A DNA stretch of 64,000 nucleotides, taken from positions 288,001 through 352,000 of the forward strand of contig CAWJRG010000010.1 of assembly GCA_963845185.1 (NCBI GenBank), given 5' to 3'. Made by a program: the position numbers and the translations under genes. Under the pieces are notes generated by a model. It saw only the letters and a program-made list of their open reading frames with translations, was not told the origin of the DNA and made no database searches. Positions 3,137-62,578 of the stretch are shown here, one piece after another. The stretch comes from an uncultured bacterium. Lineage in GTDB: Bacteria; Oederibacteriota; PGYV01; CAWJRG01. Positions within the stretch are counted from its first letter, which is position 1, and the number at the start of each line of letters is the position of its first letter.

Positions 3137-3231
3137 GGAGCCTCCTCTTAATATGTAATAATATGCTCCCTCCCCGAAGCGCTATCATACCCCGACTCTA
3201 CCAAGCGGGGTTTTTCGCGTAGCGGGATTAA
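3137..3231 (+). repeat. Modular hairpin repeat, copy A (GGAGC..GCTCCC plus CCCCG hairpin, ends GGGATTAA)
   Basis: Near-identical to 43685-43752 and 43858-43953. Confidence 0.85.
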
Positions 3232-3240
3232 TATATAAAG

Positions 3241-3269
3241 AGTATAGCAGTTAGAACTGTCTAAATCAA
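3241..3269 (-). promoter_or_regulatory. Sigma70-type promoter for typA
   Basis: TTGATT-17 nt-TATACT on the minus strand. Confidence 0.6.
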
Positions 3270-3307
3270 GCAATTTGCTTATTTGGTTCAGGACTTTATT
3301 AAAAATA

Positions 3308-3880
3308 TTATGCTGTCTTTTTGATTATCCACGCCATGTTTTTACCCAAGTTTCTGAAGTTCCTTATGCCTTCCTCGTCGTTCATTATATCGCCTGGGTT
3401 GCGGGAAAGAGTCATGTTCCAGTAAGTTGAGCCGGGTATTACCATCTGCATTATTCCAAAGAAAAAGTTTATGGCGGCGTATGTAAAATTCGAACCTGCG
3501 CGCCGCACGCTTACTACAGCAGCGCCGGTCTTGCGTATAAACATACCGTCATTTGCCATGGAAACATAACCGCAGCGCTCTATGAGCGCCTTGATATTGG
3601 CAGTGACATTGCCGAAATAAACAGGCGAGCCGATTATGACGCCGTCTGCCTCTGCCATCTTGGCTATGAGCCCGTTCATGCCGTCGTCGGCAGCGCCGCA
3701 TTTTTTGTCCTTGTTCTGCCTGCATTTCAGGCAGGCAATGCAGCCGGAAAGTTTTTTTGTCCCGATATTAATAAGCTCGGTCTGTATGCCTTCCTTTTCA
3801 AGCTCCTCAAAAACAAACTTTATTGCCTGCTGCGTGTTGCCGTTTGCCCGCGGGCTGCCGTTAAAAGCAACTACTTTCAT
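3308..3880 (-). CDS. Flavodoxin-like iron-sulfur flavoprotein (NADPH-dependent FMN reductase family)
   Basis: NGSPRANGNT, CxxCxxCx7C, GSPVYF, RRAG. Confidence 0.9.
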   Translation of the reverse strand: MKVVAFNGSPRANGNTQQAIKFVFEELEKEGIQTELINIGTKKLSGCIACLKCRQNKDKKCGAADDGMNGLIAKMAEADGVIIGSPVYFGNVTANIKALIERCGYVSMANDGMFIRKTGAAVVSVRRAGSNFTYAAINFFFGIMQMVIPGSTYWNMTLSRNPGDIMNDEEGIRNFRNLGKNMAWIIKKTA

Positions 3881-3968
3881 AAAATACCTCCTATGATCTT
3901 CCGAATTATTTTTTTAAGCACCTTTTATAGATTTATACAATAACTTGAGATTTTTGACAATATGGAAG

Positions 3969-4517
3969 TTAGTTATTTATCGCAAACCAGTATTCGGCCA
4001 GTTGTCTCTCGATTTTTTCATAGTCCCTGAAATACTTCTTAATATCCCAAAAAAATTCCCTGTTATGCCTTCTGTGCCTGAAATGGTTCAGCTCGTGGCA
4101 GACAATATAGTCTATCAGCCTCTCCGGCAGCTTTGACAGCGCGCAGTTTATTGTGATATTGCCCCTGCTGCTCCAGCTTCCCCATTTCGACCGCATGTTC
4201 TTGAAAAAAACTCTTGACGCCTTAACGCCCATTCTTTGTTCGTTTTTTAGGATGGATTTTTTTACTATCCTCTTAAATTCATTCATCGTCCTGATTATTG
4301 GCACCAGTCCAGCCGCATTCTGCTTTATCGCCTGTATCTCGTTTATTTTCCTGTAAATCCAGTTTTTATGTTTCTGTATTATCCTCTTTTCGTCCATATG
4401 CCTTCTCGGCGCTATCAGGACAAGCCTGCCTGTTTTAAGCTCTATCCTTGCGTGCTTTACGTCCCTGCGTTCGACCCGGTACGTTACATCCAGGTCATTT
4501 ATCCGTATTTTTTCCAT
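3969..4517 (-). CDS. M48/YgjP (DUF45)-like zinc metallopeptidase associated with hsdR
   Basis: MRSKWGS, DYIVCHELNH (HExxH), HNREFF; overlaps the end of hsdR. Confidence 0.88.
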   Translation of the reverse strand: MEKIRINDLDVTYRVERRDVKHARIELKTGRLVLIAPRRHMDEKRIIQKHKNWIYRKINEIQAIKQNAAGLVPIIRTMNEFKRIVKKSILKNEQRMGVKASRVFFKNMRSKWGSWSSRGNITINCALSKLPERLIDYIVCHELNHFRHRRHNREFFWDIKKYFRDYEKIERQLAEYWFAINN

Positions 4518-7500
4518 AATCCTGCGCCCCTATAATATCGGAAACTATGCTGCCTGATATCCTGTCCAGCTCATCCGGGTTATATCCCTTTTTCCTGAAT
4601 ATTCTCCTGATGATTTGCGTGACTGCCTTGCCTATTTCGGGGTTGGATATGTACTCGAGCATGTACTCGCCCTCCTCCCTGATTTTTTCCTTCACCTGTT
4701 TCATGCATTCCACGGCGTCCCCATCGCTCAGTTTTTCCTTTTTCAGCCGCAGGAACATGACATACTCTATATTGTCCAGCCCCAGCTCTTTTTGTTTGTT
4801 TTCCACTGCTTCTTTATCGTCGAATATGGCGTTCCCGGCTTTTATTATTTCCATGTAGGTTTTCACATTGCTCTGCCATTCCTGTATGAGCCGCATTACC
4901 CTGTCGGCCAGCTCCTCATAAATAGGGTTCTTTGCCTTGTCTACCAGTACATACTTTCGCAGGGCAAATATTATGCTCGCCGCCTTTTCTTCTGTCGGGT
5001 CCGCTTTCGCGAGCAGTTGCCTCATCCTTGCCTCGTCATACCGTATGCCCGGAAGCTCTTTTAAGCCTTTTATCTCCGTGCCCTTGTAAATATTTTCCAG
5101 CGTCCTCTTGAAATACTTGCGTATATAATAATCTTTTTCCGGCTCGTCGAAGTTTTTCTTGTAGTAATAATAAAACGCGGTCAGCCATTTATATTCCTTT
5201 AAGAATTTTATCTTGACTTCAGAGCTTCCGAGCAGCTCGTACAGCCGCCTTGCCTGCCTGTATTTCTCGTCGAATTCAGCCTGCCGCCTGTCTTCGGAAC
5301 TTATGAATTTCAGGATAGAAGTCAAGTGCTGGACATCATAATTCTCAAAATCAACTTTTCCTCTCTCCAGCAGCTTTTTTAATCCTTGTATTGTATCGGC
5401 AAACTTATCCGCCATTTTATCAAAGTCATACAATATGTTTTCCCTGTCTTTCTCCTCATACGCCTTAAAAGCCTTGTCTATGTCGTCGAGCACGCCCACA
5501 TAATCTATTACCAGCCCTGCTTCTTTTTCCTCATAGCGCCTGTTTGTGCGCGCTATCGCCTGTAAAAGCCTGTAATTTTTCAGGGCTTTGTGCAGGTATA
5601 CGGTCTGCAAAACAGGCGCGTCAAACCCTGTTATAAGCATTTCCGTTACTATCAAAATCTTCGGGCTTTTATCGGCGTTGTCCTTGAATTTGGGCGTTAT
5701 TTTCTTTTTGATTTCAGAAATATCTTTTTCATTATATTTTTCAGTTATCCTGCTGTACTGCGCGGCTATTTTTTGGTCTGCTTCCTTTTGACCCATTGAC
5801 ATGACTATTTCGGTTTCGTCTTCGTCAAAATACCTGTCCAGTTCTTCCTTGTACAGGCAGCATGCATGCCGGGACGCGGCTATCACGACTGCCTTGAATT
5901 TCCCGTCAAGGTTGGCTTTAAAATGCCCCGCGATATCTTTTGCTACTATCTTGATTATTTCAGGATTTTCAAGGACTACGTTTATTTTACTTAGGCGTTC
6001 CCTGACCCCTTTTTCCACGTCTTCTTTCATGGTCTCGTTTATTTCATCTATATCTTCCTGGTCGTAAAAGAACTTGATAAGGTCCCTGTCCACGTGCACT
6101 TCATCCGTCAATCTCGGCTGGTAGGCTATTTCAAGCGTGTACCCGTCCCTGACGGAATCTTCCATAAAATACCGGTCAAGGTAAAGTTTGTCGCCGTATT
6201 CAAATTCTTTATAAGTGTTCCTTTCCCTGTTTGCTATCGGCGTGCCTGTAAAAGCAAAAAGGTTTCCGCTTTTAAATATGCTTTTCATCTGCGCTGATAA
6301 AATCCCGTATTGCGACCTGTGCCCCTCGTCTATCAGGCAAATGACGTTTTTCCTGCCTGCTATGGTTGACTCGCTGCTGCCCGAGGCTTTTATTTCCTCT
6401 TCTATTGCCTTCATCTCGCTTTCAAAATCCCGTAGCTGGCCCGGATTAAACTTATGGATGAGCGTGACAAATACGCCCCTTTTGCCCCTGTATCCGTCGT
6501 GTTTCAGGATTTTCCGCAAATCCTCAATGGATGAAATCGGTTCAATGTCGGAGAACAAATCAAGATAACCGAACTCGTCGAATAACTGGGTCTCAAGCTC
6601 CTCCCTGTCCACAATAAAAAAAATGGACGGGTTTGCCGCTTCCCTCATCTGGAAAAGCTTATTCGCGGCAAATATCATGGTAAGCGTCTTTCCCGAACCC
6701 TGCCAGTGCCATATCAGGCCGCGGTCTTTTTCCTTTTTCCCGCTTATCCTGCCTGTCACCCTTTTTACAATCTTATCAGTTGCCCTGTACTGCATATAGC
6801 GGCATATTACTTTGGTTTTCCTGCCACGCTCTTCCCTGAAAAATAAATAATATTTTATAATATCGAGCAGCCTGGCAGGCTCAAGCATTTCAATTATGTC
6901 AAATAAATCTTTTGTATTCGTAGAGACAGGTTTCAAACCTGTCTCAGTTTTATCCTGTATTTCTTCAATGGATTTCCACTCGTACATCTGCGGCAATTCC
7001 CCGTTCCATGGGACTATCGGGAAATACTTTGACACGACATCAGCGCCGACTCCTATCTGGACATATTTGAATAATTCAGGTATTTTCTTTTCGTATGTTT
7101 TTATGTCTGTCACGGCGTCCAGCCAGCTCTTCCTCGCGCTTTCCGGACTTTTCAACTCTATGTTTACGAGCGGTATACCGTTGATATACAGCATTATGTC
7201 GCTCCGGATTTCCCTGTCTCCAGCCCTGTAAACCGGCTGGTTCGTGACAATATATTCATTGTTTTCAGTATTATTGAAATCAATGAAATTAAGGTCTTTT
7301 AATATTCTTTCTTTCTTATCCTCCACTCTTTGCCCGAATTTGATGTATTGCAGGGCATGTTTCATGCCTTGCTCGGTCGTAGGAAGCATTTTAAACTCAT
7401 GAATCTTGCGCGTGATTTCCTCAGGGCTGATGTTTGTGGATTTATTGATTCTTTCTATGGCGTTTTTAAGGCTGTTTTCCAGCAATACATCCCCAAGCGA

Positions 7501-7590
7501 GTTCCTCACCAGCCCCGCCCCGGGTATGTATTTCCATCCTGCTGCCTTTAACCGCTCTATAAACTGTTGTTCAAGACTTTGTTCTGTCAT
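4495..7590 (-). CDS. hsdR: Type I restriction endonuclease subunit R
   Basis: DIMLYINGIPLVNIELK nuclease motif, WHWQGSGKT, DEGHRSQ, FTGTP, TGFDAP, QAIARTNR. Confidence 0.96.
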   Translation of the reverse strand: MTEQSLEQQFIERLKAAGWKYIPGAGLVRNSLGDVLLENSLKNAIERINKSTNISPEEITRKIHEFKMLPTTEQGMKHALQYIKFGQRVEDKKERILKDLNFIDFNNTENNEYIVTNQPVYRAGDREIRSDIMLYINGIPLVNIELKSPESARKSWLDAVTDIKTYEKKIPELFKYVQIGVGADVVSKYFPIVPWNGELPQMYEWKSIEEIQDKTETGLKPVSTNTKDLFDIIEMLEPARLLDIIKYYLFFREERGRKTKVICRYMQYRATDKIVKRVTGRISGKKEKDRGLIWHWQGSGKTLTMIFAANKLFQMREAANPSIFFIVDREELETQLFDEFGYLDLFSDIEPISSIEDLRKILKHDGYRGKRGVFVTLIHKFNPGQLRDFESEMKAIEEEIKASGSSESTIAGRKNVICLIDEGHRSQYGILSAQMKSIFKSGNLFAFTGTPIANRERNTYKEFEYGDKLYLDRYFMEDSVRDGYTLEIAYQPRLTDEVHVDRDLIKFFYDQEDIDEINETMKEDVEKGVRERLSKINVVLENPEIIKIVAKDIAGHFKANLDGKFKAVVIAASRHACCLYKEELDRYFDEDETEIVMSMGQKEADQKIAAQYSRITEKYNEKDISEIKKKITPKFKDNADKSPKILIVTEMLITGFDAPVLQTVYLHKALKNYRLLQAIARTNRRYEEKEAGLVIDYVGVLDDIDKAFKAYEEKDRENILYDFDKMADKFADTIQGLKKLLERGKVDFENYDVQHLTSILKFISSEDRRQAEFDEKYRQARRLYELLGSSEVKIKFLKEYKWLTAFYYYYKKNFDEPEKDYYIRKYFKRTLENIYKGTEIKGLKELPGIRYDEARMRQLLAKADPTEEKAASIIFALRKYVLVDKAKNPIYEELADRVMRLIQEWQSNVKTYMEIIKAGNAIFDDKEAVENKQKELGLDNIEYVMFLRLKKEKLSDGDAVECMKQVKEKIREEGEYMLEYISNPEIGKAVTQIIRRIFRKKGYNPDELDRISGSIVSDIIGAQDYGKNTDK

Positions 7591-7633
7591 TTACCTACCT
7601 CTACGTAAAAAATATGAAGTAAAATTATATAAT

Positions 7634-9154
7634 TTAATCTCGAAAGAATACAGCTTCGCTATATCTCTTTGAGTTTTTTACAATTTCATTTGCTATTCTT
7701 TTTAATTCGATTTCTTTTTGAACATCATTTTTCCAAGCACGAGTAAAACGTAATTTCCATTTTTTTATTTTATTTAATGTTATTATCTGGGAATTTAAAT
7801 AACTAAATATATCTTTTGACTTTTTATTTTTCCAATCTAACAAACTTTTAATTTGAAATTCATTATCTAATTTTGATGAAATTTCATCTAATAAATCAAA
7901 ATGCAATTTTTTAGCGGATTTACAAAGTACTTTGGGAGGTAATTCTTGAATTATTTCCGCATAAGAAATACTTGTTTTCCATAAATTTTCTAAAGGTTGA
8001 TTGTTAATTCCCTCAATAAAAATAGCTTCTTTTGCGCCAAAGAAAAAATAAATTAATTGCCTGAAATTATAATAATCTTGGTCATTAGGGACATCCTTCA
8101 TATTAAATCTAAAAATGTCATCAGTTTTTATATTTATTACATATAATTCCGTCTTCGTTTTTCTATCATGATCCTTACTATTAATTATTTTTTTTCGTAA
8201 AATTTCAGAAAATTCGATAGCACTTAATCTATTATTCTTAGGTTTAACTAAATATAAAGCTATTGATTTCGTACCAATTTGCGGAATATTAGAAGCAAAT
8301 ATTCGATTTCCCAAAACAATTATAGGTAACTTTGGGAGGTAATTTTTTTCAATATCTTTTGGAATGTTTTTACCAATTATTAAAAATGCTCCTTTTACTT
8401 TATCAAAAGTACCAGCATCTCTAAAAATTTTCTTATCTATTTTTTCTTGAATTATTTCTCTTAAAACACTATTTAATTCTGCTTTTTTATTAATTTCTTT
8501 TTGAAAAAAATCATACATTTGTTTAGCATTTAACAAGCGAGCAATTTCAAATAGAATTTTTAATGTGTTTTTAAATCCTAATTCATTATTTAAATTTTCC
8601 AATTTATTTTTTTCATTTCTTAAATTATAAACATTAGCCATAACTCTTTCATTTCTTGTTGTTTTCTGAAAACTATATTTATTTAATCTTGTTATTATAA
8701 AATTTTTTAAATCTTTTAGCGTTGGTTCATTATTTAAATCATGCGGTTTTGCGTTTATATATATATTCAACAAGCATATAAATATAAGAGCGTTATTAAA
8801 TGGTTCATCTGCTTTAATAAGATTTTTCTCAAATATTTTTTCAATGCAATCTTCTAAACTAAGTGGATAGTCATCCGTTGCTTCAATCTTTTTAATATTA
8901 CCAATAAAGACCAATGCGTTATAAATCCTATCTATTATTTTAGTATTCCAGTCTTTATTGAATTTTTTTATCTTATATTCATCAATTACTTCTTTTAAAG
9001 CAAGCCACCCAAATGAAAATAAATTAATTATTAGTTTAATTATAAGGTTTTGATCTTTTAATGTGGTAAAAGTCAAAATTAACATTATTCCTATAATTAA
9101 TAAAAACAAAATCATATTTTTTTTATAAGTTAAAATAATTTTTTCAAATGTCAT
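7634..9154 (-). CDS. AT-rich hypothetical protein with two N-terminal hydrophobic helices, inside the hsd locus
   Basis: 506-codon ORF in very AT-rich DNA; its start overlaps the hsdS stop. Confidence 0.75.
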   Translation of the reverse strand: MTFEKIILTYKKNMILFLLIIGIMLILTFTTLKDQNLIIKLIINLFSFGWLALKEVIDEYKIKKFNKDWNTKIIDRIYNALVFIGNIKKIEATDDYPLSLEDCIEKIFEKNLIKADEPFNNALIFICLLNIYINAKPHDLNNEPTLKDLKNFIITRLNKYSFQKTTRNERVMANVYNLRNEKNKLENLNNELGFKNTLKILFEIARLLNAKQMYDFFQKEINKKAELNSVLREIIQEKIDKKIFRDAGTFDKVKGAFLIIGKNIPKDIEKNYLPKLPIIVLGNRIFASNIPQIGTKSIALYLVKPKNNRLSAIEFSEILRKKIINSKDHDRKTKTELYVINIKTDDIFRFNMKDVPNDQDYYNFRQLIYFFFGAKEAIFIEGINNQPLENLWKTSISYAEIIQELPPKVLCKSAKKLHFDLLDEISSKLDNEFQIKSLLDWKNKKSKDIFSYLNSQIITLNKIKKWKLRFTRAWKNDVQKEIELKRIANEIVKNSKRYSEAVFFRD

Positions 9155-10361
9155 TTTTAATACCCCTTTTAATCCTTTGTTTTCCTGTCAAAAGTACATT
9201 TATAAGCCCTTTTTTCAGAAGTTCAAATTTTCCTTTTCTATTTTCTTCGATATTTAATTGTTTATCAATATTTGAAATAATAGAAGCAATTTCACGTTGT
9301 TCAATTATAGACAATTTAACAATCTTAAAATTAACAATGTCCCTTTGAAAAAGATGGGGAATACTACTGCCGGATATTTTTTCCTTTATTAAGCTTGTAA
9401 AATTATTTGATTGGAAATATTGGAATACAAATTCAGCATCATATAATTTTTCATCAGTTCTTATAAGCATCATTGTTCCATTTATAGTTGCCTTATCAGG
9501 CAATTCATCAATATAAGCCACTCTTCCAATTGTTCCATCTTTACTTATGATAATATCTTTTTCTTTTAAAATAATTTCATGCGATTCTTCATATCTTTCA
9601 ATTGAAATATGTTGGCATCTATTCCAGATTACTTTTCCGTTTTCAATATGATTACCTGCTATAAGATAGGGCCCCGATTTAGTATATTCTTTTGAAGATA
9701 ATGCTCTCCATCCAATTCTTGCTTTAATATATGAAAAATCTCCTAGCCTAACCACCTCCCACTCCTCTGGTATCTCCCCAAGTTCGGTTTTTTTAAACTT
9801 CTTATGCCCTATGCCTCTTGTCAGCAGTTTCTGCATCATGCCTTTTTTCAGCCGCTCGGTCTTCTGTATCTTCTCCTCCGCCATCGAGATGGCGTCGTCA
9901 ACAGTGGACAAGACTTTGGCGATTTTGTTTTGCTCAATGATAGGAGGCATAACAGTTTTTCTTCTATACACAATGTCTCTATTTAATCCCGGAATAGCAG
10001 AGGAAGTTTCCATTTTTGATAAATCAAGCTTGTTTAATAAATAATAAAAGTATTTTAAATCAATATCTTTTTGCTTAAATTTAATAAAATATGTTGTATC
10101 TATAGCCCAAAAATCAGTATTGCACAAATGAATTGACCCAATAGACCCCTTTCTACCTACTAATATACCCGGCCCCTTAGCATTGTAGGAATCGTGATTG
10201 CCAACAAGTCCATTTGAACCATATACCGGATATTTTCCTCCATCCCGTTCATTCCTTTTTAAGGCAGAACCATATTCAAGTGTACAAATATCCCCAATTG
10301 ATATAAGGTTCCACTCTTCCGGTATCTCGCCAAATTCTGTTTTTTTATAGCCGGATTTCAT
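9144..10361 (-). CDS. hsdS: Type I restriction-modification specificity subunit S
   Basis: Two KKTExGEIPEEW repeats, PPIIEQNKIA and EQREIA conserved regions, LKKG..LLT coiled coils. Confidence 0.95.
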   Translation of the reverse strand: MKSGYKKTEFGEIPEEWNLISIGDICTLEYGSALKRNERDGGKYPVYGSNGLVGNHDSYNAKGPGILVGRKGSIGSIHLCNTDFWAIDTTYFIKFKQKDIDLKYFYYLLNKLDLSKMETSSAIPGLNRDIVYRRKTVMPPIIEQNKIAKVLSTVDDAISMAEEKIQKTERLKKGMMQKLLTRGIGHKKFKKTELGEIPEEWEVVRLGDFSYIKARIGWRALSSKEYTKSGPYLIAGNHIENGKVIWNRCQHISIERYEESHEIILKEKDIIISKDGTIGRVAYIDELPDKATINGTMMLIRTDEKLYDAEFVFQYFQSNNFTSLIKEKISGSSIPHLFQRDIVNFKIVKLSIIEQREIASIISNIDKQLNIEENRKGKFELLKKGLINVLLTGKQRIKRGIKNDI

Positions 10362-11302: not shown

Positions 11303-11316
11303 AAACTCACCTCACA

Positions 11317-18211: not shown

Positions 18212-18221
18212 TTTAAGCCTC

Positions 18222-18392
18222 CTAGCAAGAGTTTATTTTGCAAACCGTCAACAGGTGCAGCAAAATATTACTCTTGCTAGCACCCGTTCAAGTCCGAGGC
18301 CGTCAGGCCGAGAGTTAAATAGTCCTGTGGACTATTTAACGGGTAGCTTCCATAAGTTGGTATAATATAAAACTACCCACAAGTGGTGCTGG
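18222..18392 (+). repeat. Modular hairpin repeat, copy B (with nested 65-bp sub-module 18314-18378)
   Basis: Shares both hairpins with the 40196, 41025, 42155 and 62369 copies. Confidence 0.85.
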
Positions 18393-40195: not shown

Positions 40196-40292
40196 CAAGA
40201 TATCGTTTGTTTTGTTAAGCCTGCGGTGCAAATAAAGCATTACGAGATCTTGTACCCGCTCAAGTCTCGAGCTTGCGAGAGATAAGAGGTAC
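40196..40292 (+). repeat. Modular hairpin repeat, copy C
   Basis: Two-hairpin unit similar to 41025-41126. Confidence 0.85.
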
Positions 40293-40304: not shown

Positions 40305-40988
40305 TTATTTAATTGCGTAAAATCCTGCCTGCATATATGAATACCAGAAAAGTTCCACAGAACTAAACCCGCAGTAGCGCAGCATCGAAAGGTGTTCCTC
40401 AACAGTTATTGGAAAATATTCTTTGCCGAACCTTTCCATGTGCTTGTCAGCTTCTTTTTCAGTCCTGCCGGCAGATATCATAAAACTCTTCCAGTATTTC
40501 TTTCCTATTTTAATCCCTTCTTCTGTCATAGGCCGTATATTCTCAAAAGTTATATACATTCCGCCCGGTTTTAAAAGGTTAAAACAAACAGCAGTTGCTT
40601 TAATCCTCTGTTTCGCCTGCAGATAATGATGTGCCTGTATTGCCGTAATTATATCAGGGCTTCCAGACATTTTCAGGTCCTGCGTTCCAGTTGGGGGAAT
40701 GAACCTGAACCAGCCTTTTTTCTTTTCAAGTTTTTTCTTTGCCATTTTCAGCATCTGTTCCGAAGGGTCGGACAGCACAAATGTAGCACCTGGAAATACA
40801 GCCAGGGCCTTTTCCACGAAACTGCCTGTGCCACACCCTGCGTCCAGCCATAAGGCAGGTTCTATTCCAGCCGCTTTAACGAATTTTAATGTTTCATTAT
40901 GCATGTTGTCGTAATATGGAATTGTTTTTTTGACCTGAACGTCAAATTCCGAAGACTTGTGCGCGCTTGTATTGTCATTTTTTGGCAT
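40305..40988 (-). CDS. Class I SAM-dependent methyltransferase
   Basis: WLDAGCGTG, DPSEQML, LKPGG; CmoA-like layout. Confidence 0.9.
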   Translation of the reverse strand: MPKNDNTSAHKSSEFDVQVKKTIPYYDNMHNETLKFVKAAGIEPALWLDAGCGTGSFVEKALAVFPGATFVLSDPSEQMLKMAKKKLEKKKGWFRFIPPTGTQDLKMSGSPDIITAIQAHHYLQAKQRIKATAVCFNLLKPGGMYITFENIRPMTEEGIKIGKKYWKSFMISAGRTEKEADKHMERFGKEYFPITVEEHLSMLRYCGFSSVELFWYSYMQAGFYAIK

Positions 40989-41024
40989 TTATTCTTCCTT
41001 CCTGACTATTGGATTTGAGATATT

Positions 41025-41126
41025 ATGATATCGTTTGTTTTGTCAAGCTTCTTAGCGCAGATAAAACATTACGATATCTTGCACCCGTTCCAGTCCAAGG
41101 CTGCCAAGCCGAGGACAAGCGGTGTA
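41025..41126 (+). repeat. Modular hairpin repeat, copy D
   Basis: GATATCG-TTT..ATTA-CGATATC hairpin plus CACCCGTT..GTCC..GGACAAGCGGTG hairpin. Confidence 0.85.
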
Positions 41127-41207: not shown

Positions 41208-41426
41208 TTACTTTACCGCTGGTGTAGTTGCCGCAACCGGCGTAGCCACTGCCGCGGCTTTTTTAACTTTCTTAACTTTCTTGATTCTCTTCTGGCCCGA
41301 TTTTGCTGACATTGTCGTCTTTACCGGGGCTGCCTGGCCTGTTGCTGCCGGGGCAGTTGTTTCTCCAGCTGCGAAAACCGATACTGTGAATAACAAAGCT
41401 ATTGCAGATACTATTAACTTTTTCAT
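41208..41426 (-). CDS. Small secreted Ala/Thr/Lys-rich protein, copy 2
   Basis: AGGAGG RBS, signal peptide; near-identical to 41466-41684. Confidence 0.85.
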   Translation of the reverse strand: MKKLIVSAIALLFTVSVFAAGETTAPAATGQAAPVKTTMSAKSGQKRIKKVKKVKKAAAVATPVAATTPAVK

Positions 41427-41465
41427 GATATTGCCTCCTGATTTTTTTAGTTTTTAAATTTTGCC

Positions 41466-41684
41466 TTACTTTACCGCTGGCGTCGCTGCCGCAACCGGCG
41501 TGGCTACTGCCGCGGCTTTTTTAACTTTCTTAACTTTCTTAATTCTTTTCTGGCCCGATTTTGCTGTTGCTGTTGTCTTTACCGGAGCTGCCTGGCCTGT
41601 AGTTGCCGGGGCAGTTGTTTCTCCAGCTGCGAAAACCGATACTGTGAATAACAAAGCTATTGCAGATACTATTAACTTTTTCAT
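41466..41684 (-). CDS. Small secreted Ala/Thr/Lys-rich protein, copy 1
   Basis: AGGAGG RBS, ATG at 41684, signal peptide. Confidence 0.85.
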   Translation of the reverse strand: MKKLIVSAIALLFTVSVFAAGETTAPATTGQAAPVKTTATAKSGQKRIKKVKKVKKAAAVATPVAAATPAVK

Positions 41685-41758
41685 GACATGCCTCCTGATT
41701 TTTTTAGTTTTAGAATTATAAATCATCAGATTAAATAATAGGTCGGGCCTAAAAAGAG

Positions 41759-42139
41759 TCAGTTTCTTGATTTTCTTATTGTGATATTTATCTTTTCTTT
41801 AAACATCCTGCTATTTTTATCTATTATGCCGCTTGCCTGATTTTCAGGCTCATTCTGCCTTGCGCAGTATATGTTAACTGTTTTATTATTTACTTTCTTG
41901 GTGATTTCTTCGCCGTTTAGCAATAACTTTCCCTTTATTTTTGCATTTTCATTTTTCCCGTGGCTTTTCTTCTTTATGGCTGTCTTGTATTGAAGATTTT
42001 TAACCAGTACCTGCCCGTAAATCTTAACTGGTTTGGATATTAAAAAGCTGTTTGCCGAGAGCATAAAAATCCCGCTCCCTGCGTATAACTCTGCAGCCAT
42101 GAATAATATTACGCTTGTAACCGCTAAAATAGTTTTCAT
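41759..42139 (-). CDS. Hypothetical basic secreted protein
   Basis: AAGGAG RBS, signal-peptide-like N-terminus. Confidence 0.6.
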   Translation of the reverse strand: MKTILAVTSVILFMAAELYAGSGIFMLSANSFLISKPVKIYGQVLVKNLQYKTAIKKKSHGKNENAKIKGKLLLNGEEITKKVNNKTVNIYCARQNEPENQASGIIDKNSRMFKEKINITIRKSRN

Positions 42140-42154
42140 AATATACTCCTTAAC

Positions 42155-42250
42155 AAGAGTTTATTTTTGCAAGCCGTCAACAGGCGCAGCAAAAATATTA
42201 CTCTTTTTTATACCCTATCAAGTCCCGAGCTTGCGAGGGACAAGCGGTAT
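42155..42250 (+). repeat. Modular hairpin repeat, copy E
   Basis: First hairpin nearly identical to 18227-18275; second hairpin like copy C. Confidence 0.85.
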
Positions 42251-43608: not shown

Positions 43609-43684
43609 TGCACTCTCCGGCTGTAGCTTGCGTTTATGTGAAGCCCCCGCCTTCACAGGCGGGTTACCTTAAAAAATTCTCTGC

Positions 43685-43752
43685 TATGCTCCCTCCCCAA
43701 AGCGCTATCAATCCCCGCTCTACCGGCGGGGATTTTCGCGAAGCAGGATTAA
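43685..43752 (+). repeat. Modular hairpin repeat, copy F
   Basis: TATGCTCCCTCCCCAAAGCGCTATCA..TTTTCGCG..GGATTAA as in copy A. Confidence 0.85.
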
Positions 43753-43857: not shown

Positions 43858-43953
43858 GTGGAGCTACTAAAAAATTTTTAATATGCTCCCTCCCCAAAGC
43901 GTTATCAAATCTAGCTTCTATAGTAGGCTGGGTTTTTCGCGGAGCGGAATTAA
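43858..43953 (+). repeat. Modular hairpin repeat, copy G
   Basis: GTGGAGCTACTA..ATATGCTCCC..TTTTCGCG..GGAATTAA. Confidence 0.85.
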
Positions 43954-54101: not shown

Positions 54102-54141
54102 GCTTAAACCTCAATAAATTATTTTGTAGAGACACGCCATG

Positions 54142-55755: not shown

Positions 55756-55777
55756 CATGGCGTGTCTCTACTTTATT

Positions 55778-56485
55778 TTACTTCTTTTTCTTTTTCGCCT
55801 GCTGCTTTTCTTTTTCCATAAGGCCTAGGTGCCTCATGACATACCACACTATTGCGGCAATGATTATAACCAGTATCAAGGCGTCGACCAGGTGCATCCA
55901 TTTTCCAAGGCTGTGTTTCAGGTTTTCTTTCCATGCGTTTATGTCTGCCGCATGCTGGCCTATTTTCCATCCTACCCACGCAAGTGCCCAGCACCACGGT
56001 ATTGACCCGAGCATGGTGTAAAAGCAAAACCTTACAAAACGCATTTTTGCTATGCCGGCCGGCAGTGATATGAATGTCCTTATGACAGGCAGCAGCCTGC
56101 TGGTAAATATCGCTATCTCGCCGTATTTGTTAAAAAACCGGTCTGCAAGATCAAGGTCGTGCTTTGATATCAAAACATATTTCCCGTATTTGTCCAAAAA
56201 CGGCCTGCCTCCCCACTTTCCCACGGCATATGCCACGATTGAGCCTACAAGGCACCCGAAAGCGCCTATCAAACCAATCCAGAAAATGGATGCAAGCGCC
56301 CCGCCGAATTTAAAAAAACCGGTTACTATCAGGTATCCCGCAAAAGGCATTATTATTTCGCTTGGCAACGGTATGCACGCGCTTTCAATTGCCATTGCCA
56401 GGATTACCCCGATTCCAAACGGCCCGAAAAACATGAACATGTTCTGGATAAACTGTCCCAAAGCCCCTACAATTGCTTCAACCAT
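55778..56485 (-). CDS. DedA family membrane protein
   Basis: ESACIPLPSEIIMPFAG, RLLPVIRTFISLPAG. Confidence 0.93.
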   Translation of the reverse strand: MVEAIVGALGQFIQNMFMFFGPFGIGVILAMAIESACIPLPSEIIMPFAGYLIVTGFFKFGGALASIFWIGLIGAFGCLVGSIVAYAVGKWGGRPFLDKYGKYVLISKHDLDLADRFFNKYGEIAIFTSRLLPVIRTFISLPAGIAKMRFVRFCFYTMLGSIPWCWALAWVGWKIGQHAADINAWKENLKHSLGKWMHLVDALILVIIIAAIVWYVMRHLGLMEKEKQQAKKKKK

Positions 56486-56502
56486 AAATCCTCCCACTAT
56501 TT

Positions 56503-56531
56503 GTAGAGACGACCCGCCGGGTCGTCTCTAC
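56503..56531. repeat. GTAG-type REP palindrome
   Basis: GTAGAGACGACCCG-C-CGGGTCGTCTCTAC. Confidence 0.85.
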
Positions 56532-56580
56532 TTTTATTTATTAAGATTTTGCTATTTGATTTGTTGTTAAACGAAAAATT

Positions 56581-56656
56581 TGGTGGAGCTGATCGGGATT
56601 GAACCGACGACCCTCAGACTGCCAGCCTGATGCTCTCCCAACTGAGCTACAGCCCC
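56581..56656 (-). tRNA. tRNA-Ala(GGC)
   Basis: GGGGCTGTAGCTCAGTTGGGAGAGC..CTGGCAG..GGTTCAATCCC..CTCCACCA; 76 nt, G3:U70 pair, encoded CCA. Confidence 0.97.
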
Positions 56657-56676
56657 ACCTCTTCTTTGTGGCTAAA

Positions 56677-56705
56677 ATACTATATTTTTATCTTATGCCT
56701 GTCAA
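56677..56705 (-). promoter_or_regulatory. tRNA promoter
   Basis: TTGACA-17 nt-TAGTAT. Confidence 0.65.
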
Positions 56706-56746
56706 GGTATTTTTATTCTGATGAGAGGATGTCTGTGAGCGGATTT

Positions 56747-59152
56747 TTACTGTTTTTTTGACTTCTTTACCCAGTTATTAACATAAATGTCTACGTCTGT
56801 TCCGCCCGTAAAGACTTCAAAAATTTCAACCTCTTCGTCTATGCCTTTCAAATTAAGCCCCTCTTCCATCTTTGCAAGCGCGATATATTTATCCAGTATC
56901 CTGTCGTAATAATAGTAAGCGTCGTAAGAAAGGTTAATTTTATCGCTTTCCAGCATATTTACCTCGACTTCCTTGCGCAGGGAATTAAAAACTTCCTTTG
57001 TTATGACTATGCCGTGGTTAAAAAGTTTTTTGTTCTGCACGTACACTTTCCTCGGCAGTGTTTTTGAACCGTATAGTTTTTCAAGATAGGCCTTTACCTC
57101 GTCGTTTGAGCCGGATAACCTTGCCGCCTGGTTTAGGTTTGGGGATAAAACTATATTAAACTTAACGTCACCTTCGCCTTCGCCTATAACGGCAACAAAA
57201 AGGTCCCCTTCGGTTATGCCTATGCCTATTTCCACCTTGGGCATTGAAAATTGCTCTGCGGTTTTTCTTATTGCGGCCTGCAGGCTAACGTTTTTATCCC
57301 CGCCGGCAAGCTTTAAAAAAGAGTTAATATTGTCCGGCATTTTGTCATCCGGGACAATTTTGGCATTAACCTGCCCGTCATCGCCTATGATTTCTTGCTT
57401 TATTAACTCCTTGAAAAGTGATTTCTCGTTTATTTTAACTTTTTCTTCGGCTTCTTTCCTTAATTTTGCGAATTCATTATGCACCAGGTACGCCGACCTT
57501 ATGCAGTCCGGTATTTTGGCAAAATGCGCGGCAAACCCGTCTCCGGCGAAATAAATTTCGGTGCCGCCCTGTTCTATCGTAGTCTTATACACAGTGCTTA
57601 AGTAAGGCGTTAAAAATACCGTGGTGTCCTTTGTCAGACGCATGCTTGTTTCAGTCGAATTTCTCAAATCGGCAAATAAAAATATTTTCCTGCCCCTGCC
57701 CTTGCTGCCTTCCACGCCCGGATAAACAGCGCCTTCCTCGCGGAAATAAAAGATGTTTCCTTCTTCAAACATGTTTTCTATCCTTGAGCGTTCGTCGTCC
57801 GGCGCCATTACGCACTCAAGCCTTTCTTTGCCCGTTTCTTCCGCAATAATGCTTTTTATCTTGCTTTGCCTCAAAACTTTTATCCCTATAATCTCTTCCT
57901 TGTACGACGATTTTTTCCCGTACTTCTCCCTTATTACAATAAAATTATTGACGCTTCGCAGGTAATAGGAAAGGTTGTCTATGCAGGCAAGCATGATTTC
58001 ATCGAATTCCTTGTTAAAAAGCGTGTTGAAAAATGAATTTTGGCTCCGGTCCATTTTGTCGCATGCGTCGAATATCGCCCTGGTAAGTTCCCTGCTGGTA
58101 ATGCTTTTCACGTCTTTCAGCAGCATTATAATGTACTTCCTTACCTTGCTTTCGTAGAATACGTCGCTGAGCGTTTCGTCATCCCTTATGAAGTTAAGAA
58201 GTTCGCTGCTGCCAATCTCCGATACTACGTTGTAAATGAGTTTCCTCACTTTTGCTTTCCCTTGCCTGAAAACAAGCCTGCCTGTTAATTCCTTGTCTTT
58301 TTTTACAAGTTTTCTTAAATTTTTCCTGTCTTTTTTGTCCGAAAGTATAAGCTTGATAATGTTGGAATCGGCCAGTATGTATTTTAAATTATCGTATTTA
58401 TCAACGGATTTGGATTTTTTTATTATCTCGTCAAAATAGCTTAAGAATTTGTTTACCGCGTTCCTGTCGACAAATATATTCTTATCCTTTGTAAAAATTA
58501 TTTTTTCTATCTGTGTCATTTCGGCCACATCGTTGAAAATAAGCGCATATTTATTAAAGAGCACCGCCGCTTTCCTGCTGCCGGCGCCGGTCTGTTCAAT
58601 GCGTATTTTCTCCATTTCAGGGTCCTCAAATATTTCCCTGAGCGTCATTTCAAAAATCTCGCCAAGCAGGTAAAAAAGCGTGTCTTTCATGACGTTGAAT
58701 TTCTCAAAATGCCTCTGAAAATATTCCTCGATAATTCCCGATATAAGCGATGTCAAAGACAGCCATGTAAAAAAATCAAGGTCCTCGATTTTAAGCTGGT
58801 TCTGCTGTTTTATGGAATTTAAAATTATCCGCTTTATGCTCGTCGCCAGCGTTGCCTTGCGCTCATAATACCATTTGCTGTATTTGGCCCAGCTTATGTT
58901 CGAAAACTCCGACATTATATGGAAATAAAAATCAGTCATGTTCCTGTCCCTGGGCAGGGCGCCGAAATCCTTGAATTTTTCGTCGGTGAATATCATTTCT
59001 ATAAAGGTATCGATGAAAAAATATATGTCCTTTTCTATGTTGAAAGGGAAAGTGACCTGGTAAAATTTGTTGGAAGGGTCGTATGAAACTTCTGAATTTT
59101 TATGGTAAAAGTTGATGTCTATCTTTTTCGGGAAAATATTGAGTTTGCCCAC
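56747..59152 (-). CDS. Large soluble protein with a C-terminal class III nucleotide cyclase domain
   Basis: FLFADLRNST, YFAGDGF, IGIGITEG, LNQAARL, LKG motifs in cyclase order. Confidence 0.8.
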   Translation of the reverse strand: MGKLNIFPKKIDINFYHKNSEVSYDPSNKFYQVTFPFNIEKDIYFFIDTFIEMIFTDEKFKDFGALPRDRNMTDFYFHIMSEFSNISWAKYSKWYYERKATLATSIKRIILNSIKQQNQLKIEDLDFFTWLSLTSLISGIIEEYFQRHFEKFNVMKDTLFYLLGEIFEMTLREIFEDPEMEKIRIEQTGAGSRKAAVLFNKYALIFNDVAEMTQIEKIIFTKDKNIFVDRNAVNKFLSYFDEIIKKSKSVDKYDNLKYILADSNIIKLILSDKKDRKNLRKLVKKDKELTGRLVFRQGKAKVRKLIYNVVSEIGSSELLNFIRDDETLSDVFYESKVRKYIIMLLKDVKSITSRELTRAIFDACDKMDRSQNSFFNTLFNKEFDEIMLACIDNLSYYLRSVNNFIVIREKYGKKSSYKEEIIGIKVLRQSKIKSIIAEETGKERLECVMAPDDERSRIENMFEEGNIFYFREEGAVYPGVEGSKGRGRKIFLFADLRNSTETSMRLTKDTTVFLTPYLSTVYKTTIEQGGTEIYFAGDGFAAHFAKIPDCIRSAYLVHNEFAKLRKEAEEKVKINEKSLFKELIKQEIIGDDGQVNAKIVPDDKMPDNINSFLKLAGGDKNVSLQAAIRKTAEQFSMPKVEIGIGITEGDLFVAVIGEGEGDVKFNIVLSPNLNQAARLSGSNDEVKAYLEKLYGSKTLPRKVYVQNKKLFNHGIVITKEVFNSLRKEVEVNMLESDKINLSYDAYYYYDRILDKYIALAKMEEGLNLKGIDEEVEIFEVFTGGTDVDIYVNNWVKKSKKQ

Positions 59153-59162
59153 TTTTCGCCTC

Positions 59163-59510
59163 TTATTTTACAGTGTTGTCTTCGGATACTGCCATTTTAT
59201 CCCCGATTTTAATATTTTTCAATCTTATAAGTCCCTGCTTGAACTCATAAGTATCTTTTGCCTTAAAACTTCCGGCAAACTTCCACGGCTTTAAATTCTC
59301 CCTCGTGAAAACAACCGTGCCCATTTTGTCTGTCATGGCAATATCAATCGGCATCATCATAAAAAAAGTGTGTATCGTATTGCAGGAAGGTATATATAAT
59401 ACCTGGCCGTCTTTTAATTCTTTTTTCCCCAGGAGCCCGATGATTCTTTTTATTAAATTATCGGCTATTGTGACGTTCTCGGATATAATCTCGTTATTCC
59501 TTCGCAGCAA
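59163..59510 (-). CDS. DUF192 domain protein
   Basis: ADN...R..GLLG, IHTFFM..PIDI, LKPWK; start uncertain. Confidence 0.85.
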   Translation of the reverse strand: MLRRNNEIISENVTIADNLIKRIIGLLGKKELKDGQVLYIPSCNTIHTFFMMMPIDIAMTDKMGTVVFTRENLKPWKFAGSFKAKDTYEFKQGLIRLKNIKIGDKMAVSEDNTVK

Positions 59511-59513
59511 TTT

Positions 59514-60391
59514 TCAAAATCCCTGCATCAGTTTAATCACTATGGGCCCGAAAAGCACTATGAACACGACCGGGAATATGAAAAGCAGCAGCGGGATCAG
59601 GAGTTTGACCGGCGCTTCGTACGCTTTCTTTTTCAGGGACTGGAACCTCTTGTTCCTCATTTCCTCGGCCTGCGACCTCAGGATTTCCTTGATATTGCCG
59701 CCCATTTTTTCCGCCTGTATAAAAATACCGGCAAAGCTGTCCATTTCTTTCAATTTCCATCTTGAGGAAAGCTCCAGCATAGCCTCTTCAAAACTTTTGC
59801 CAAGCTGGATTTTTTTGATTGTCACGGCCATCTCTTTTGCGAACTCATTCTTTGTTTTTTGCCCGCTTTTATCCCCTTCTTCCGCGTAGCGTGAAATTGC
59901 CTGGTTCAGGGAAAGGCCGCCTTCAATGCTGGCGGTAATTATATCAATCGCGTCCGGTAATTCTTTCAGGATAAGTTCCTGCTTTTCGGCCACTTTATTT
60001 TTTAAAATCATGGAAGGAATAAAAAACCCGAATATTCCCGCGGCAACACCCAAAACCGCGCTGTCAAAAAGCAGCAATCCCGTTATAAACAGGGCCAGCG
60101 CGCTTGCCTGCTGCAATAAAAGGAAAGTTTCGGCTGTCAGCTTGTTCTCCATGTTTAATTTTTGAATATCAAAAGATATATTGCGGTATTTTTTGCCGCC
60201 GGCCAGTTTTTTGTTGGCTGCAATGATATTATCCCTTAAATACAGCATGAAGTCCTTTGCCTTATTGTAATAGGACACGTAGAACTGCCCTGGATGGCTT
60301 TTAAGGTTTTTTGCCTGTGCAGGATAACGGCTATAGCGTAAGTGCATGTTGCCGCTGATATGAATATTATGACTGTTAAAATTAATGCCAT
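59514..60391 (-). CDS. tadC: Type II secretion F family pilus assembly protein TadC; apparent 1-bp frameshift near the 5' end
   Basis: LPDAIDII..IEGGLS, APVKLLIPL..FIFP; RBS plus ATG at 60391 encodes a TM helix in a different frame from ORF 59514-60347. Confidence 0.8.
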
Positions 60392-60400
60392 ATTTTTCCT

Positions 60401-61237
60401 CTAATTGATGGTGACTATTTTTTTTATTATTAAGGCGCCTATGGATTCCATGATAACCACGGCTATCAGCATGATGTTTCCGGCTGTTGTGGTAAATAAA
60501 GGCGTCACGAACTGCGGGTCAATAAAAAATATTATTACAAGCAAAAACAGGGGTAGCATCCCTACTATTATTCCCGACATAACCCCCTGCGAAGTCATGG
60601 CTTTTAATTCCCTTTTTAACTCTTCCCTTTTCCGTATGGTGGCAAGTATGTTGCCCAGAACATGCGTAATATTGCCGCCTGTTTCCATGGACGTGTTTAT
60701 CGCGGCTATGAATATTTCATTTTCTTTAAGCGGCACTCGTTCCTTAAGCCCGTTTAATGCCTGTGAAATGCTTTGCCCGAGCTCTATTTTCCTGATAACC
60801 ATGTTTATTTCGGCACTTATTGCGCCGTCGTTTTTTTCAGCTTTTACCTGGAATGCCTTGACTATGCTCAATCCCGCCTTTAAGCTGCTTAATATGGATT
60901 CGATGAAATCCGGCAGCTGGCTGTAATACTCATCAATGTATTTTTTTTGTTTTAAGTTGACATATATTTTCGGCGCGGCTATTGCCGCCGCCGCCCCAAG
61001 GATTAAGACTGAAACTTTCATTGTTATTAAAAACAGCGCCGCGGTTGCCGCGGCAATCATGGCTTCAGTCCTGAAAATCTCCCCTTTGCCGACTTTAATC
61101 AGGCTTGTTTTGATAAAATTATTTATATCGCTTTTATATTTCGTCATTATGTCCGATATTTTTTTTATTATTTCCCCGTTGTAATAAACCGCTATGGCTA
61201 TTGCGGCGAATATCGCCGCGCATATGGTAATTTTCAT
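60401..61237 (-). CDS. tadB: Type II secretion F family pilus assembly protein TadB
   Basis: QLPDFIE....SLKAGLS, ETGGNI..VL, AMTSQG. Confidence 0.88.
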   Translation of the reverse strand: MKITICAAIFAAIAIAVYYNGEIIKKISDIMTKYKSDINNFIKTSLIKVGKGEIFRTEAMIAAATAALFLITMKVSVLILGAAAAIAAPKIYVNLKQKKYIDEYYSQLPDFIESILSSLKAGLSIVKAFQVKAEKNDGAISAEINMVIRKIELGQSISQALNGLKERVPLKENEIFIAAINTSMETGGNITHVLGNILATIRKREELKRELKAMTSQGVMSGIIVGMLPLFLLVIIFFIDPQFVTPLFTTTAGNIMLIAVVIMESIGALIIKKIVTIN

Positions 61238-61238
61238 T

Positions 61239-62252
61239 TTAAAACTGCCTCAAAAACCTTATGTCGTTTTCAAAAAACAGGCGCATGTCGTCAATCCTGT
61301 ATTTCAGCATCGCTATCCTCTCGACCCCCATGCCGAACGCGAACCCTGTGTATTTCTCGGCGTCGTAATTGACGTTTTTAAAAACGTCGGGGTGTATCAT
61401 GCCCGACCCGAGTATTTCAAGCCAGCCCGTATTTTTGCAGATTGCGCAACCCTTGCCCTTGCAGCTCACGCACTGCACGTCAACCTCGGCTGACGGCTCG
61501 GTAAACGGGAAAAAGCTGGGCCTGAACCTGACTTTCAGTTCCTTGCCGAATATTTCCTGCGTGAACATTTCCAATACGCCCTTAAGGTCGGAAAAGCGTA
61601 CTCCCTCGTCTACCATGAAGCCCTCCACCTGGTGGAACACCGGCGAATGCGACGCGTCGGCTGCGTCCTTTCTGTAAACCCTGCCCGGCGCGAGTATTTT
61701 AAGAGGCGGCTTGCATTTCTCCATAACCCTTATCTGTATCGGGGATGTATGCGTCCTTAAAATATATTCATCGTCTATCGTAAAAGTGTCGTGCATGTCC
61801 CTTGCCGGGTGGTCCGCCGGGAAATTCAAGGCTTCAAAATTGTAATAATTTTTCTCTATGTCCGGCCCGTCCGCGACAGAGAAACCCATTCTTAAAAAAA
61901 TGGACTTGATTTCCTCCATGGTCTTTATCAACGGGTGCTGTGTGCCTTTTGCTATCGAGTAGGCAGGCAGGGTAATGTCGAAATCTTTCAGGTTTTTTGT
62001 CTTTTGAAGCTCAATTAATTTTCTTTCGGCTTCGGCAAAAACAGACTCGAAATAACTTTTTATTTCGTTGAAATATTTGCCTTTGTTTATTTTTTCCTGC
62101 TTACCTCCAATATCCTTAAGCGATGAAAACAGGCCGGTAATGACACCGCTCCTGCCCGTATATTTTGCCTTGAACTGGTTTAATGATGCGGTGTCCTGTA
62201 CTGCGCCGGCATCCTTATTTATCTGTTCTTTCATGTCCTTATCAATGTCCAT
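61239..62252 (-). CDS. pheS: Phenylalanine--tRNA ligase alpha subunit
   Basis: HPARDMHDTF, LRTHTS, FRPSFFPFTEPS, GFAFGMGVER. Confidence 0.98.
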   Translation of the reverse strand: MDIDKDMKEQINKDAGAVQDTASLNQFKAKYTGRSGVITGLFSSLKDIGGKQEKINKGKYFNEIKSYFESVFAEAERKLIELQKTKNLKDFDITLPAYSIAKGTQHPLIKTMEEIKSIFLRMGFSVADGPDIEKNYYNFEALNFPADHPARDMHDTFTIDDEYILRTHTSPIQIRVMEKCKPPLKILAPGRVYRKDAADASHSPVFHQVEGFMVDEGVRFSDLKGVLEMFTQEIFGKELKVRFRPSFFPFTEPSAEVDVQCVSCKGKGCAICKNTGWLEILGSGMIHPDVFKNVNYDAEKYTGFAFGMGVERIAMLKYRIDDMRLFFENDIRFLRQF

Positions 62253-62368
62253 TGTGACCTTGACCTCATATAATATGCGATGTCCACCATACTAGGTGGA
62301 TAAATAAAAAAATCGGGTATAACCCGATTCGTATTATATAAAGCTTTACCGGCTTTGTAAAGTTCTTT

Positions 62369-62578
62369 GTGGAGCTACTATTAACAAATATTCTTATATG
62401 CTCCCTTGATAGCGTTTATTTTGTCTAGCCAAAGGCGACAGTTAAATAGTCTTGTAGACTATTTGACGGGTAGTTTCCATAAGTTATTAATATAAAACTA
62501 CCCTAAATATTACGCTATCAGGTACCCGCTCTAGTCCGAGGCTTTAGCCGAGGACAAGCGGTACCTAGGTGGGATTAA
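62369..62578 (+). repeat. Modular hairpin repeat, copy H (composite, nested sub-module 62441-62503)
   Basis: Starts like copy G, contains both hairpins of copies B-E and the insert seen in B, ends GGGATTAA. Confidence 0.85.

Follow-up and report, generated by a model that had tools for sequence, protein, structure and literature searches.

What are the eight repeated sequences that lie between the genes of a 64,000-nucleotide stretch of DNA from an uncultured bacterium of the phylum Oederibacteriota (assembly GCA_963845185.1, contig CAWJRG010000010.1, positions 288,001 to 352,000), and how did they come to be there? The stretch, called the window below, is G000:C10:288001-352000 in our notation, where G000 is the 3.5-Mb source genome, C1, C9, C10 and so on are contigs, L numbers are labelled DNA stretches and f10 is another family of the same order. 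A first-pass annotation regarded the eight sequences (A to H in Table 1, in order of position) as one modular family of hairpin elements assembled from modules X, Z and W. The eight stretches and their modules were indeed present, all intergenic (between open reading frames, ORFs) and all in a single orientation, although several ends had to be moved: the copy placed at 43685 starts at 43638, its right-end hairpin having been missed, the copies at 42155 and 41025 start at 42150 and 41024, and the end at 18392 became 18389. The single family did not survive. The window holds copies of three separate gene-less repeats, here named F1, F2 and V, which likely spread as folded single-stranded DNA (ssDNA) by means of HUH-type (Y1) enzymes supplied in trans; we assign this reading a probability of roughly 0.55.

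The separation rests on the pattern of blastn matches for each query and on separate profile hidden Markov models (HMMs). As queries the eight copies matched 208 merged loci in the genome, A, F and G matching one set of loci and B to E another. The copies at 3137, 43685 and 43858 have no module in common with those at 18222, 40196, 41025 and 42155. The profile HMMs placed F1 (module X to GGGATTAA) at 40 loci, F2 (Z plus W) at 154 and V at 54, the window containing three F1 and one F1 remnant, five F2 and two V. The copy at 62369, whose fold lies far beyond chance (z = -7.4), had been taken as the link between two subfamilies; it is a nested insertion, V inside F2 inside a decayed F1. V, the third element, lies inside the 18222 copy as well. 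F2 breaks into F1 at one and the same CTCC site in five copies of the genome, of which three are near-duplicates; two more genome copies have F2 at neighbouring or decayed sites of F1, and the same insertion was seen in a relative (L232). Since uninterrupted F1 cores show four C in 24 of 28 cases, and F2-interrupted ones five C throughout, one pyrimidine was added and nothing was duplicated. The elements also differ in range: within the order 11 of the 24 genomes carry F2, the 75 other genomes of the phylum have none, and convincing matches to F1 and V were confined, among 99 genomes, to the source genome, with further ones on sister metagenome contigs. A common ancestry of all eight, with the 62369 copy as a transitional form, would account for the shared orientation in the window and for a copy H that contains all modules. 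It is nonetheless hardly credible, because F1 and F2 share no sequence except in nested copies, obey different orientation rules, differ in genome range and meet at a defined site where F2 breaks F1; independent filled and empty sites for F1, F2 and V contradict it too. The three-level nesting illustrates that a bacterial repeat that looks 'modular' may be a patchwork of elements with no relation to one another.

F1 resembles a known kind of element. In IS608 the guide also makes a cross pair at its fourth position. IS200/IS605 elements favour the lagging-strand template (PMC5027513), their gene-less derivatives are known as palindrome-associated transposable elements (PATEs; PMC10055086), and IS608 has hairpins 19 and 10 nt from its ends, its guides forming cross pairs with the sites of cleavage (PMC3201880). 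F1 is about 115 nt long. On the minus strand its left end is preceded by TTAA in 24 of 39 copies and by TTnA in 30; the left hairpin begins 17 nt in, with AAAT or AAAA just before it, and a full right end reads GGTG, a hairpin and then 7-8 nt ending in CCAC. A GGnG guide was counted by eye in 12 of the 15 right ends that bear a hairpin. These guides fit the cleavage sites, AAAT or AAAA with TTnA and GGnG with CCAC. An empty site (L204 compared with C10:267983) retains TTAA without duplication. The GC skew of six contigs was used to assign replichores manually, and the gene bias was taken from our own ORF calls; on this basis the minus strand of F1 is part of the lagging-strand template in 39 of 39 copies, although 16 of them adjoin lagging-strand genes (p 0.03 against a gene bias of 89.6%). 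Copy G in the window is one that adjoins such a gene yet keeps the replichore-locked orientation.

F1 thus resembles PATEs and IS608 in lacking terminal inverted repeats and target duplication, in keeping a tetranucleotide target 5' of its left end, in its subterminal hairpins 17 and 7-8 nt from the ends, in its cross-pairing guides and in its lagging-template orientation. It differs from PATEs in that no cognate TnpA was found, the right hairpin is often lost and the element ends in CCAC. Because the PATE features that were tested are present, F1 is likely a PATE, one more of a known kind. From an architecture and a strand that are directly observed it probably moves by peel-and-paste: a postulated TnpA would peel the minus strand from the lagging-strand template as a circle, which would then be pasted 3' of TTAA without duplication. 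The proposal of an IS200/IS605-type ssDNA-hairpin element therefore suits the X/GGGATTAA copies well, with the minus rather than the plus strand as the active one, but not the details of Z/W: its hairpins are flush with the ends, it breaks the IS608 guide rule and its orientation follows genes. An autonomous partner with the same ends and a tnpA was not found in the genome, in 98 other genomes of the phylum, at 50 Y1 loci, in viral contigs or in phages, a search that did not extend to metagenomes.

Several variants and neighbours of F1 were noted. Minimal forms of about 45-50 nt, at G000 C10:9063 and C3:6465, join the start of the left end to the finish of the right end around one hairpin. A further small palindrome sits within the left hairpin at G000 C5:561288-561393, C10:688449 and C9:824449, among 9 motif matches. 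A relative of about 78% identity carries a second PATE-like element, of 118 nt (L192:1763-1880), with a TTAA target and a CCAC end around a different body, and with a clean empty site at G000 C10:59718. Another member of the phylum has an IS200-type tnpA (L012, G027:C1:919642) with TTAA before its left end and CCGCC/GGCGG hairpins that resemble those of F1, but the ends are not identical.

F2 is a different matter. It is a rod of about 99 nt without genes, formed by the two hairpins Z and W. In an alignment of 39 copies, out of 40 drawn at random from 62 simple ones, 92.4% of the cells were paired and 25 of 37 pairs showed two-sided changes, so the covarying stems described at first pass are real; none of 500 shuffles reached the observed value and slid controls gave 34-44%. 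Among relatives, 31 distinct matches were 88.7% paired with two-sided changes in 29 of 37 pairs, in an alignment fitted to the model. The stems reach both ends of the element and meet at one purine. In 87 copies this junction purine changes in step with the first base (A with T in 29 of 30; p 5e-7) and with the last base (p 2e-6). The purine is G in all nine copies whose first base is the C of the Shine-Dalgarno (SD) sequence itself (p 0.024); because the copies are kin, these p values are too strong. Matches from relatives have complementary bases to it at either end in 33 of 33 cases. Covariation of one purine with both terminal pyrimidines suggests a single-strand cut-and-join guided by one base pair.

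The first-pass annotation had also noted an excess of G-T pairs on the plus strand, and this held for F2 with 57 G-T against 17 A-C cells; tandem G-A loops are present on the plus form too. In the F2 of relatives the asymmetry is slight (8 against 5). A T-loop or tRNA-like reading of W was dropped, as the position concerned pairs and covaries. It might be thought that a two-hairpin fold with conserved internal loops, lying in 5' leaders beside the SD, is a riboswitch or another described cis-regulatory RNA. This is most improbable: the eight stretches had no Rfam match at gathering or E-value thresholds, the genes downstream are unrelated, the wobble-favoured strand is antisense to the mRNA, and the element is present or absent among close relatives.

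F2 lands at unusual places. A left end could be parsed at 120 of the 154 loci, and 86 of these ends directly adjoin an SD-like word that has a start codon and an ORF of at least 40 codons after it, compared with 1.4% of random intergenic positions. GGAG lies within 0-2 nt of the left end in 84 cases, in 66 of them at exactly 1 nt. An ORF of that kind follows only 45% of intergenic GGAG words. The SD lies outside F2 and exists at empty sites. Two such junctions in the window, at the SD of gcvH and at that of the gene at 41759-42139, adjoin the Z end and had been overlooked. Copy D is not SD-flush and lies 36 nt upstream of the start of the ORF at 40305-40988. The orientation of F2 equals the gene bias (141/152, p 0.23), and among the 11 exceptions seven stand directly at the SD of a gene on the lagging strand; orientation driven by the replichore was rejected, as it follows the genes. 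These counts mean that F2 follows the gene and F1 the fork. In G000 the strand that folds runs antisense to its neighbouring gene. In f10 the plus form lies in sense, beyond terminator U-tracts and about 5-9 nt past the terminator hairpins (judged by eye), or directly after the fabG stop codon. Elsewhere F2 follows CTCC in G001, as in G000, and the end of a tRNA in G008. The idea that F2 begins at transcription starts was discarded, there being no positional -10/-35 peak among 133 ends; nor was a promoter called at the one f10 copy considered.

F2 has moved, as filled and empty sites among close relatives demonstrate. A metagenome scan yielded 88 stretches, of which 79 were analysed, many of them syntenic with G000 at about 78% or 88% identity. 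F2 was missing from G000 in 20 of 27 intervals anchored on both sides (two represent the same locus), and in the reverse comparison it was missing from the relative in 6 of 15. L207 has a clean empty site: in G000 the SD edge and the downstream flank are contiguous and nothing is duplicated. The spread is not recent, since nearest neighbours are 86% identical at the median, and a neighbour of at least 95% identity exists for just 4 of 73 copies. In six orthologous pairs of resident F2 copies, differences fall on 38 of the 435 positions that are paired and on 34 of the 146 that are not, and adjacent intergenic DNA is only 40-73% alike in five of the six. Fewer changes at paired positions mean that the stems are conserved in place, by selection or by conversion, although only 14 of 30 changed pairs are still paired in both copies. 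The earlier conclusion that the structure is under selection is thus supported by covariation here and in relatives and by stem conservation in resident copies. No element matches were found in viral contigs, plasmids or phages.

Arrays of F2 occur as well: seven units stand head-to-tail with a 100-nt period at G000 C9:916477-917176, and three units with a 98-nt period at G014:C31:7616-7909. The first hinted at a perfect head-to-tail unit with one shared pyrimidine, an idea that ten junctions did not uphold. Split, cargo-bearing F2 or F1 around a gene was sought and not found, and segmental duplications bounded by the elements showed no clear pattern (37/483 near an element). A short second hairpin ('U') is inserted in the W stem of an inverted F2-like unit at G000 C10:695602-695835, C9:19061-19398 and C9:934846-935045, with 6 motif matches. 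F2 units also stand between duplicated segments of about 70-80 nt at G003:C117:3010-3147 (L182), G021:C62:54254 (L181) and G001:C13:3165-3483 (L183); the segment of G003 and G021 is a gene's 3' end, the gene resembling, by eye, ribonucleotide reductase.

How might such an element travel? Our proposal, which is tentative, is that F2 moves as a single-stranded dumbbell whose last base is replaced by a target pyrimidine set against the junction purine. The nicked dumbbell, its two hairpins meeting at that purine, would open at the junction and be linked to a target strand whose terminal pyrimidine can pair with it; this pyrimidine would take the place of F2's own last base, and no target duplication would result. 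Surviving copies would then collect at the edges of transcription units, where the stems of residents would stay under selection.

V, about 65 nt long, gene-less and made of two hairpins flush with its ends, has F2 as its usual site. Near-full copies lie in or abut F2 in 41 of 46 cases; by eye, decayed F2 holds three of the others and a different palindromic repeat the remaining two. The insertion substitutes for 1-3 unpaired bases at several different positions in the loops, and V is missing from the orthologous F2 copy in a relative of about 88% identity (L209). Its wobble asymmetry is 15 G-T to 2 A-C. V would land in unpaired loops of F2. A bolder reading takes F2 and V as the first members of a class of dumbbells of about 65-100 nt, each in its entirety a nicked rod capped by hairpins, integrated without duplication under the guidance of one base pair by an undescribed enzyme, retargeted between SD edge and terminator end, and with residents selected at more than 100 genes; we consider this doubtful, if conceivable.

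A candidate enzyme was sought without success: the first-pass statement that the window encodes no cognate enzyme holds, and none was found in the genome or in relatives either. A local HMM built from 35 ORFs with an HUH-like motif, taken from Y1 loci of relatives, did recover two RAYT-like genes (REP-associated tyrosine transposase; REP, repetitive extragenic palindrome) that a PF01797 search had missed, the nearest F1 or F2 being 8-10 kb away. No enzyme was found beside dense clusters of the elements, among 59 of the ORFs from six regions. IS110 was dismissed because it targets another palindrome, and IS1182 and IS3 because their ends are unrelated to the elements. Searches for IS91 and IscB gave no match in any control genome and are hence uninformative.

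A number of observations weigh against spread as ssDNA by Y1 enzymes. The genome has no IS200 TnpA or TnpB. The GTAG-type REP that accompanies the RAYT-like genes, with about 80 genome copies, differs from F1 and F2, and no ends of F1, F2 or V lie near 50 Y1 loci of relatives. Many F1 copies lack the right-end hairpin, and four TTAC targets of F1 are not matched by a change in the guide. The structured strand of F2 is on the leading-strand template in 141 of 152 copies, opposite to the behaviour of IS608. As DNA its two strands fold equally well (22/40, p 0.41), and as RNA the plus strand is favoured (26/40, p 0.007). The first base of F2 tracks the sub-lineage and so may be encoded by the element. 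Most empty sites are not clean, their flanks having changed. Head-to-tail junctions are inexact, 8-14 nt, with the length expected for a single shared pyrimidine in 1 of 10 and one base more in 4 of 10.

Some of this would suit an RNA intermediate, in which a reverse transcriptase (RT) of the group II intron type switches template onto the structured RNA and the cDNA of F2 (and V) is joined at exposed sites near ribosome-binding sites or terminators. A resident group II intron, which we take to belong to a described lineage that targets start codons, has inserted at the SD plus start codon in seven places in G000, F2 standing directly before that SD in two; its last domain supplies its own AAGGAGG and ATG ahead of the downstream gene. 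Imprecise F2 junctions, concatemers and RNA folding that favours one strand point the same way. Such RTs switch template on a single base pair (10.1101/792986) and class C introns insert after terminators (PMC8643678), as F2 does in f10. We nevertheless think this route unlikely, because no RT domain turned up in any of the five relatives with F2 that were searched, including one that is 98% complete and assembled in 3 contigs, because F2 has neither an intron-like 5' end nor a domain V, and because F2 lies antisense and upstream of the SD, whereas the intron lies in sense and after the ATG.

Alternatively, F2 might be a structured RNA or DNA boundary element used by the host, such as a leader cassette, transcript stabiliser or small RNA, and copied by recombination and gene conversion. 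The slower change of stems in orthologous copies and the scarcity of near-identical copies given above would agree with it, as would single f10 copies that different genera retain at shared loci (fabG-acpP and others) and the swapping of Z and W variants at one locus (L192). Yet there is no fixed promoter position at either end of F2, F2 inserts in F1 and in unrelated accessory genes, and recombination alone leaves new SD-flush sites unexplained, so that this explanation too seems rather improbable. With a folding strand that opposes the mRNA in this genome and runs in sense in f10, no single RNA role fits both; the undescribed repeated noncoding RNA offered as the other choice at first pass may still apply to F2, yet filled and empty sites show that it has moved. 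Travel as a folded ssDNA dumbbell remains our preferred reading. The coordinates of the features are collected in Table 1.

Table 1. Features in the window (window positions) and two further gene classes of the source genome G000 (contig positions). CM, covariance model.
Feature	Position	Strand	Remarks
F1 copy A (PATE-like)	3137..3231	-	right-end hairpin lost; retained TTAA target is the final 4 nt on +; F1 HMM E 2e-22
Shine-Dalgarno GGAGG of gcvH	18218..18222	-	flush with Z end of F2 copy B; gcvH by NCBIfam
F2 copy B (Z + W hairpins)	18222..18389	+	V interrupts W arm; CM 61.8 bits
V element in 3' arm of W of F2 copy B	18313..18378	+	V HMM E 1.2e-15
F2 copy C	40196..40292	+	just upstream of cutA start, weak SD-like GGTG; CM 82 bits
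F2 copy D	41024..41125	+	CM 96.6 bits
F2 copy E	42150..42250	+	flush with GGAG (42146-42149) of ORF 41759-42139; CM 78.4 bits
F1 copy F	43638..43752	-	full length, both hairpins, TTAA target included; F1 HMM E 1.2e-23
F1 copy G	43858..43953	-	right-end hairpin lost; F1 HMM E 2.9e-21
Decayed F1, right-end part (module X)	62369..62404	-	target of F2 copy H
F2 copy H	62405..62564	+	inserted in F1 after CTCC; V interrupts Z arm; CM 74.1 bits
V element within F2 copy H	62440..62503	+	V HMM E 3e-15
Decayed F1, left-end remnant with TTAA target	62565..62578	-	sequence
RAYT-like Y1 genes	C5:416746-417519 (L186), C1:234017-234622 (L187)		GTAG-type REP inside or around
Group II intron	C9:699931-701880, C9:811163-813089, C9:845005-846928, C10:383310-385235, C10:831383-833306, C11:61512-63460 (L294); C1:269248-269912		C1 copy partial

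Other mobile sequences and repeats share this genome. An IS1182-family element, with about ten more copies, has the apex of palindromic repeats as its insertion site; the copy at G000 C11:38283-39921 (L292) is split in two frames. An IS3 element lies at the end of one F2-like copy (C8:1549-2823, L293), and IS110 copies occupy a C-rich/G-rich palindromic repeat at G000 C1:322594, C5:336326, C9:329921 and C10:445412. The genome also has three tyrosine recombinases and two GIY-YIG genes. At 41208-41689 of the window, in the interval from F2 copy D to copy E, a 224-nt sequence occurs twice in direct orientation; the two are 93% alike and 258 nt apart.

F1 alone would be routine. F2 amounts to about 150 copies of a 99-nt element set one base from ribosome-binding sites, sparing both the reading frame and the SD, and it gives roughly 3% of the genes a rewritten 5' leader without having the ends of any tested IS, MITE (a miniature transposable element with inverted repeats) or REP. 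How small structured repeats without terminal repeats move (REP2, BOX and the small dispersed repeats, SDRs, among them) has long been asked; since the ends, the junction base and the filled and empty sites of F2 are defined, the question could be tested with a candidate enzyme or with reads.

How does F2 compare with known systems? Neither F2 nor V has PATE anatomy: the stems of F2 reach both ends, no guide fits the CTCC or U-tract sites, and the lagging-template orientation is absent. Classical DDE MITEs were ruled out for the elements, as empty sites and insertions into F1 show neither terminal inverted repeats nor target-site duplication. Integron attC sites have ends of the form RYYYAAC ... 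GTTRRRY; in F2 the GTT is in the 5' arm, the reverse order. Elhai and colleagues reportedly described, in 2008, the SDR4-6 repeats of Nostoc punctiforme, very small structured sequences nested in other repeats, with the mechanism said to be unknown. Group II introns of class C target terminators (PMC8643678). Others, which target start codons, were reportedly treated by Michel and colleagues in 2007. Like these introns F2 lands at expression signals, and both of its site types have an intron parallel, but it measures 99 nt, lacks both ribozyme domains and an RT, and stands antisense at SD sites.

REPs, bacterial interspersed mosaic elements (BIMEs) and REPINs, the hairpin-forming REP doublets, are moved by RAYT (TnpA-REP) (PMC8266576, PMC3116915, PMC6006769). 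F2 resembles them in being intergenic, in its high copy number, mosaic arrays and compensatory stem changes, in the proposed ssDNA hairpin intermediate and in serving as a target for other IS (PMC3116915 for presumed mobility). It differs in having no doublet of inverted REPs and no GTAG-type foot and in abutting SDs; membership was rejected, as no conserved GTAG-type tetranucleotide stands 5' of a short palindrome and copies flank no RAYT gene. With Neisseria REP2 and the IR-A/IR-B repeats of Borrelia (PMC3184786), F2 shares two stem-loops, the lack of terminal repeats and a position directly upstream of many genes. It differs in copy number, about 150 against about 25. REP2 brings its own promoter, ribosome-binding site and ATG (PMC3184786), whereas F2 stops just before the host SD; with the SD outside F2 and present at empty sites, and no fixed promoter, the REP2 type was excluded. 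No description of an F2-like repeat or of a small SD-flush element was found in the literature covered, which leaves out most subscription papers. F2 is thus an undescribed variant with an unusual landing site, belonging to neither PATEs, REPs/REPINs, MITEs, REP2, attC sites nor any Rfam family. It stands nearest to REP2 and IR-A in position, though without an SD of its own, and nearest to REPINs in presumed mobility.

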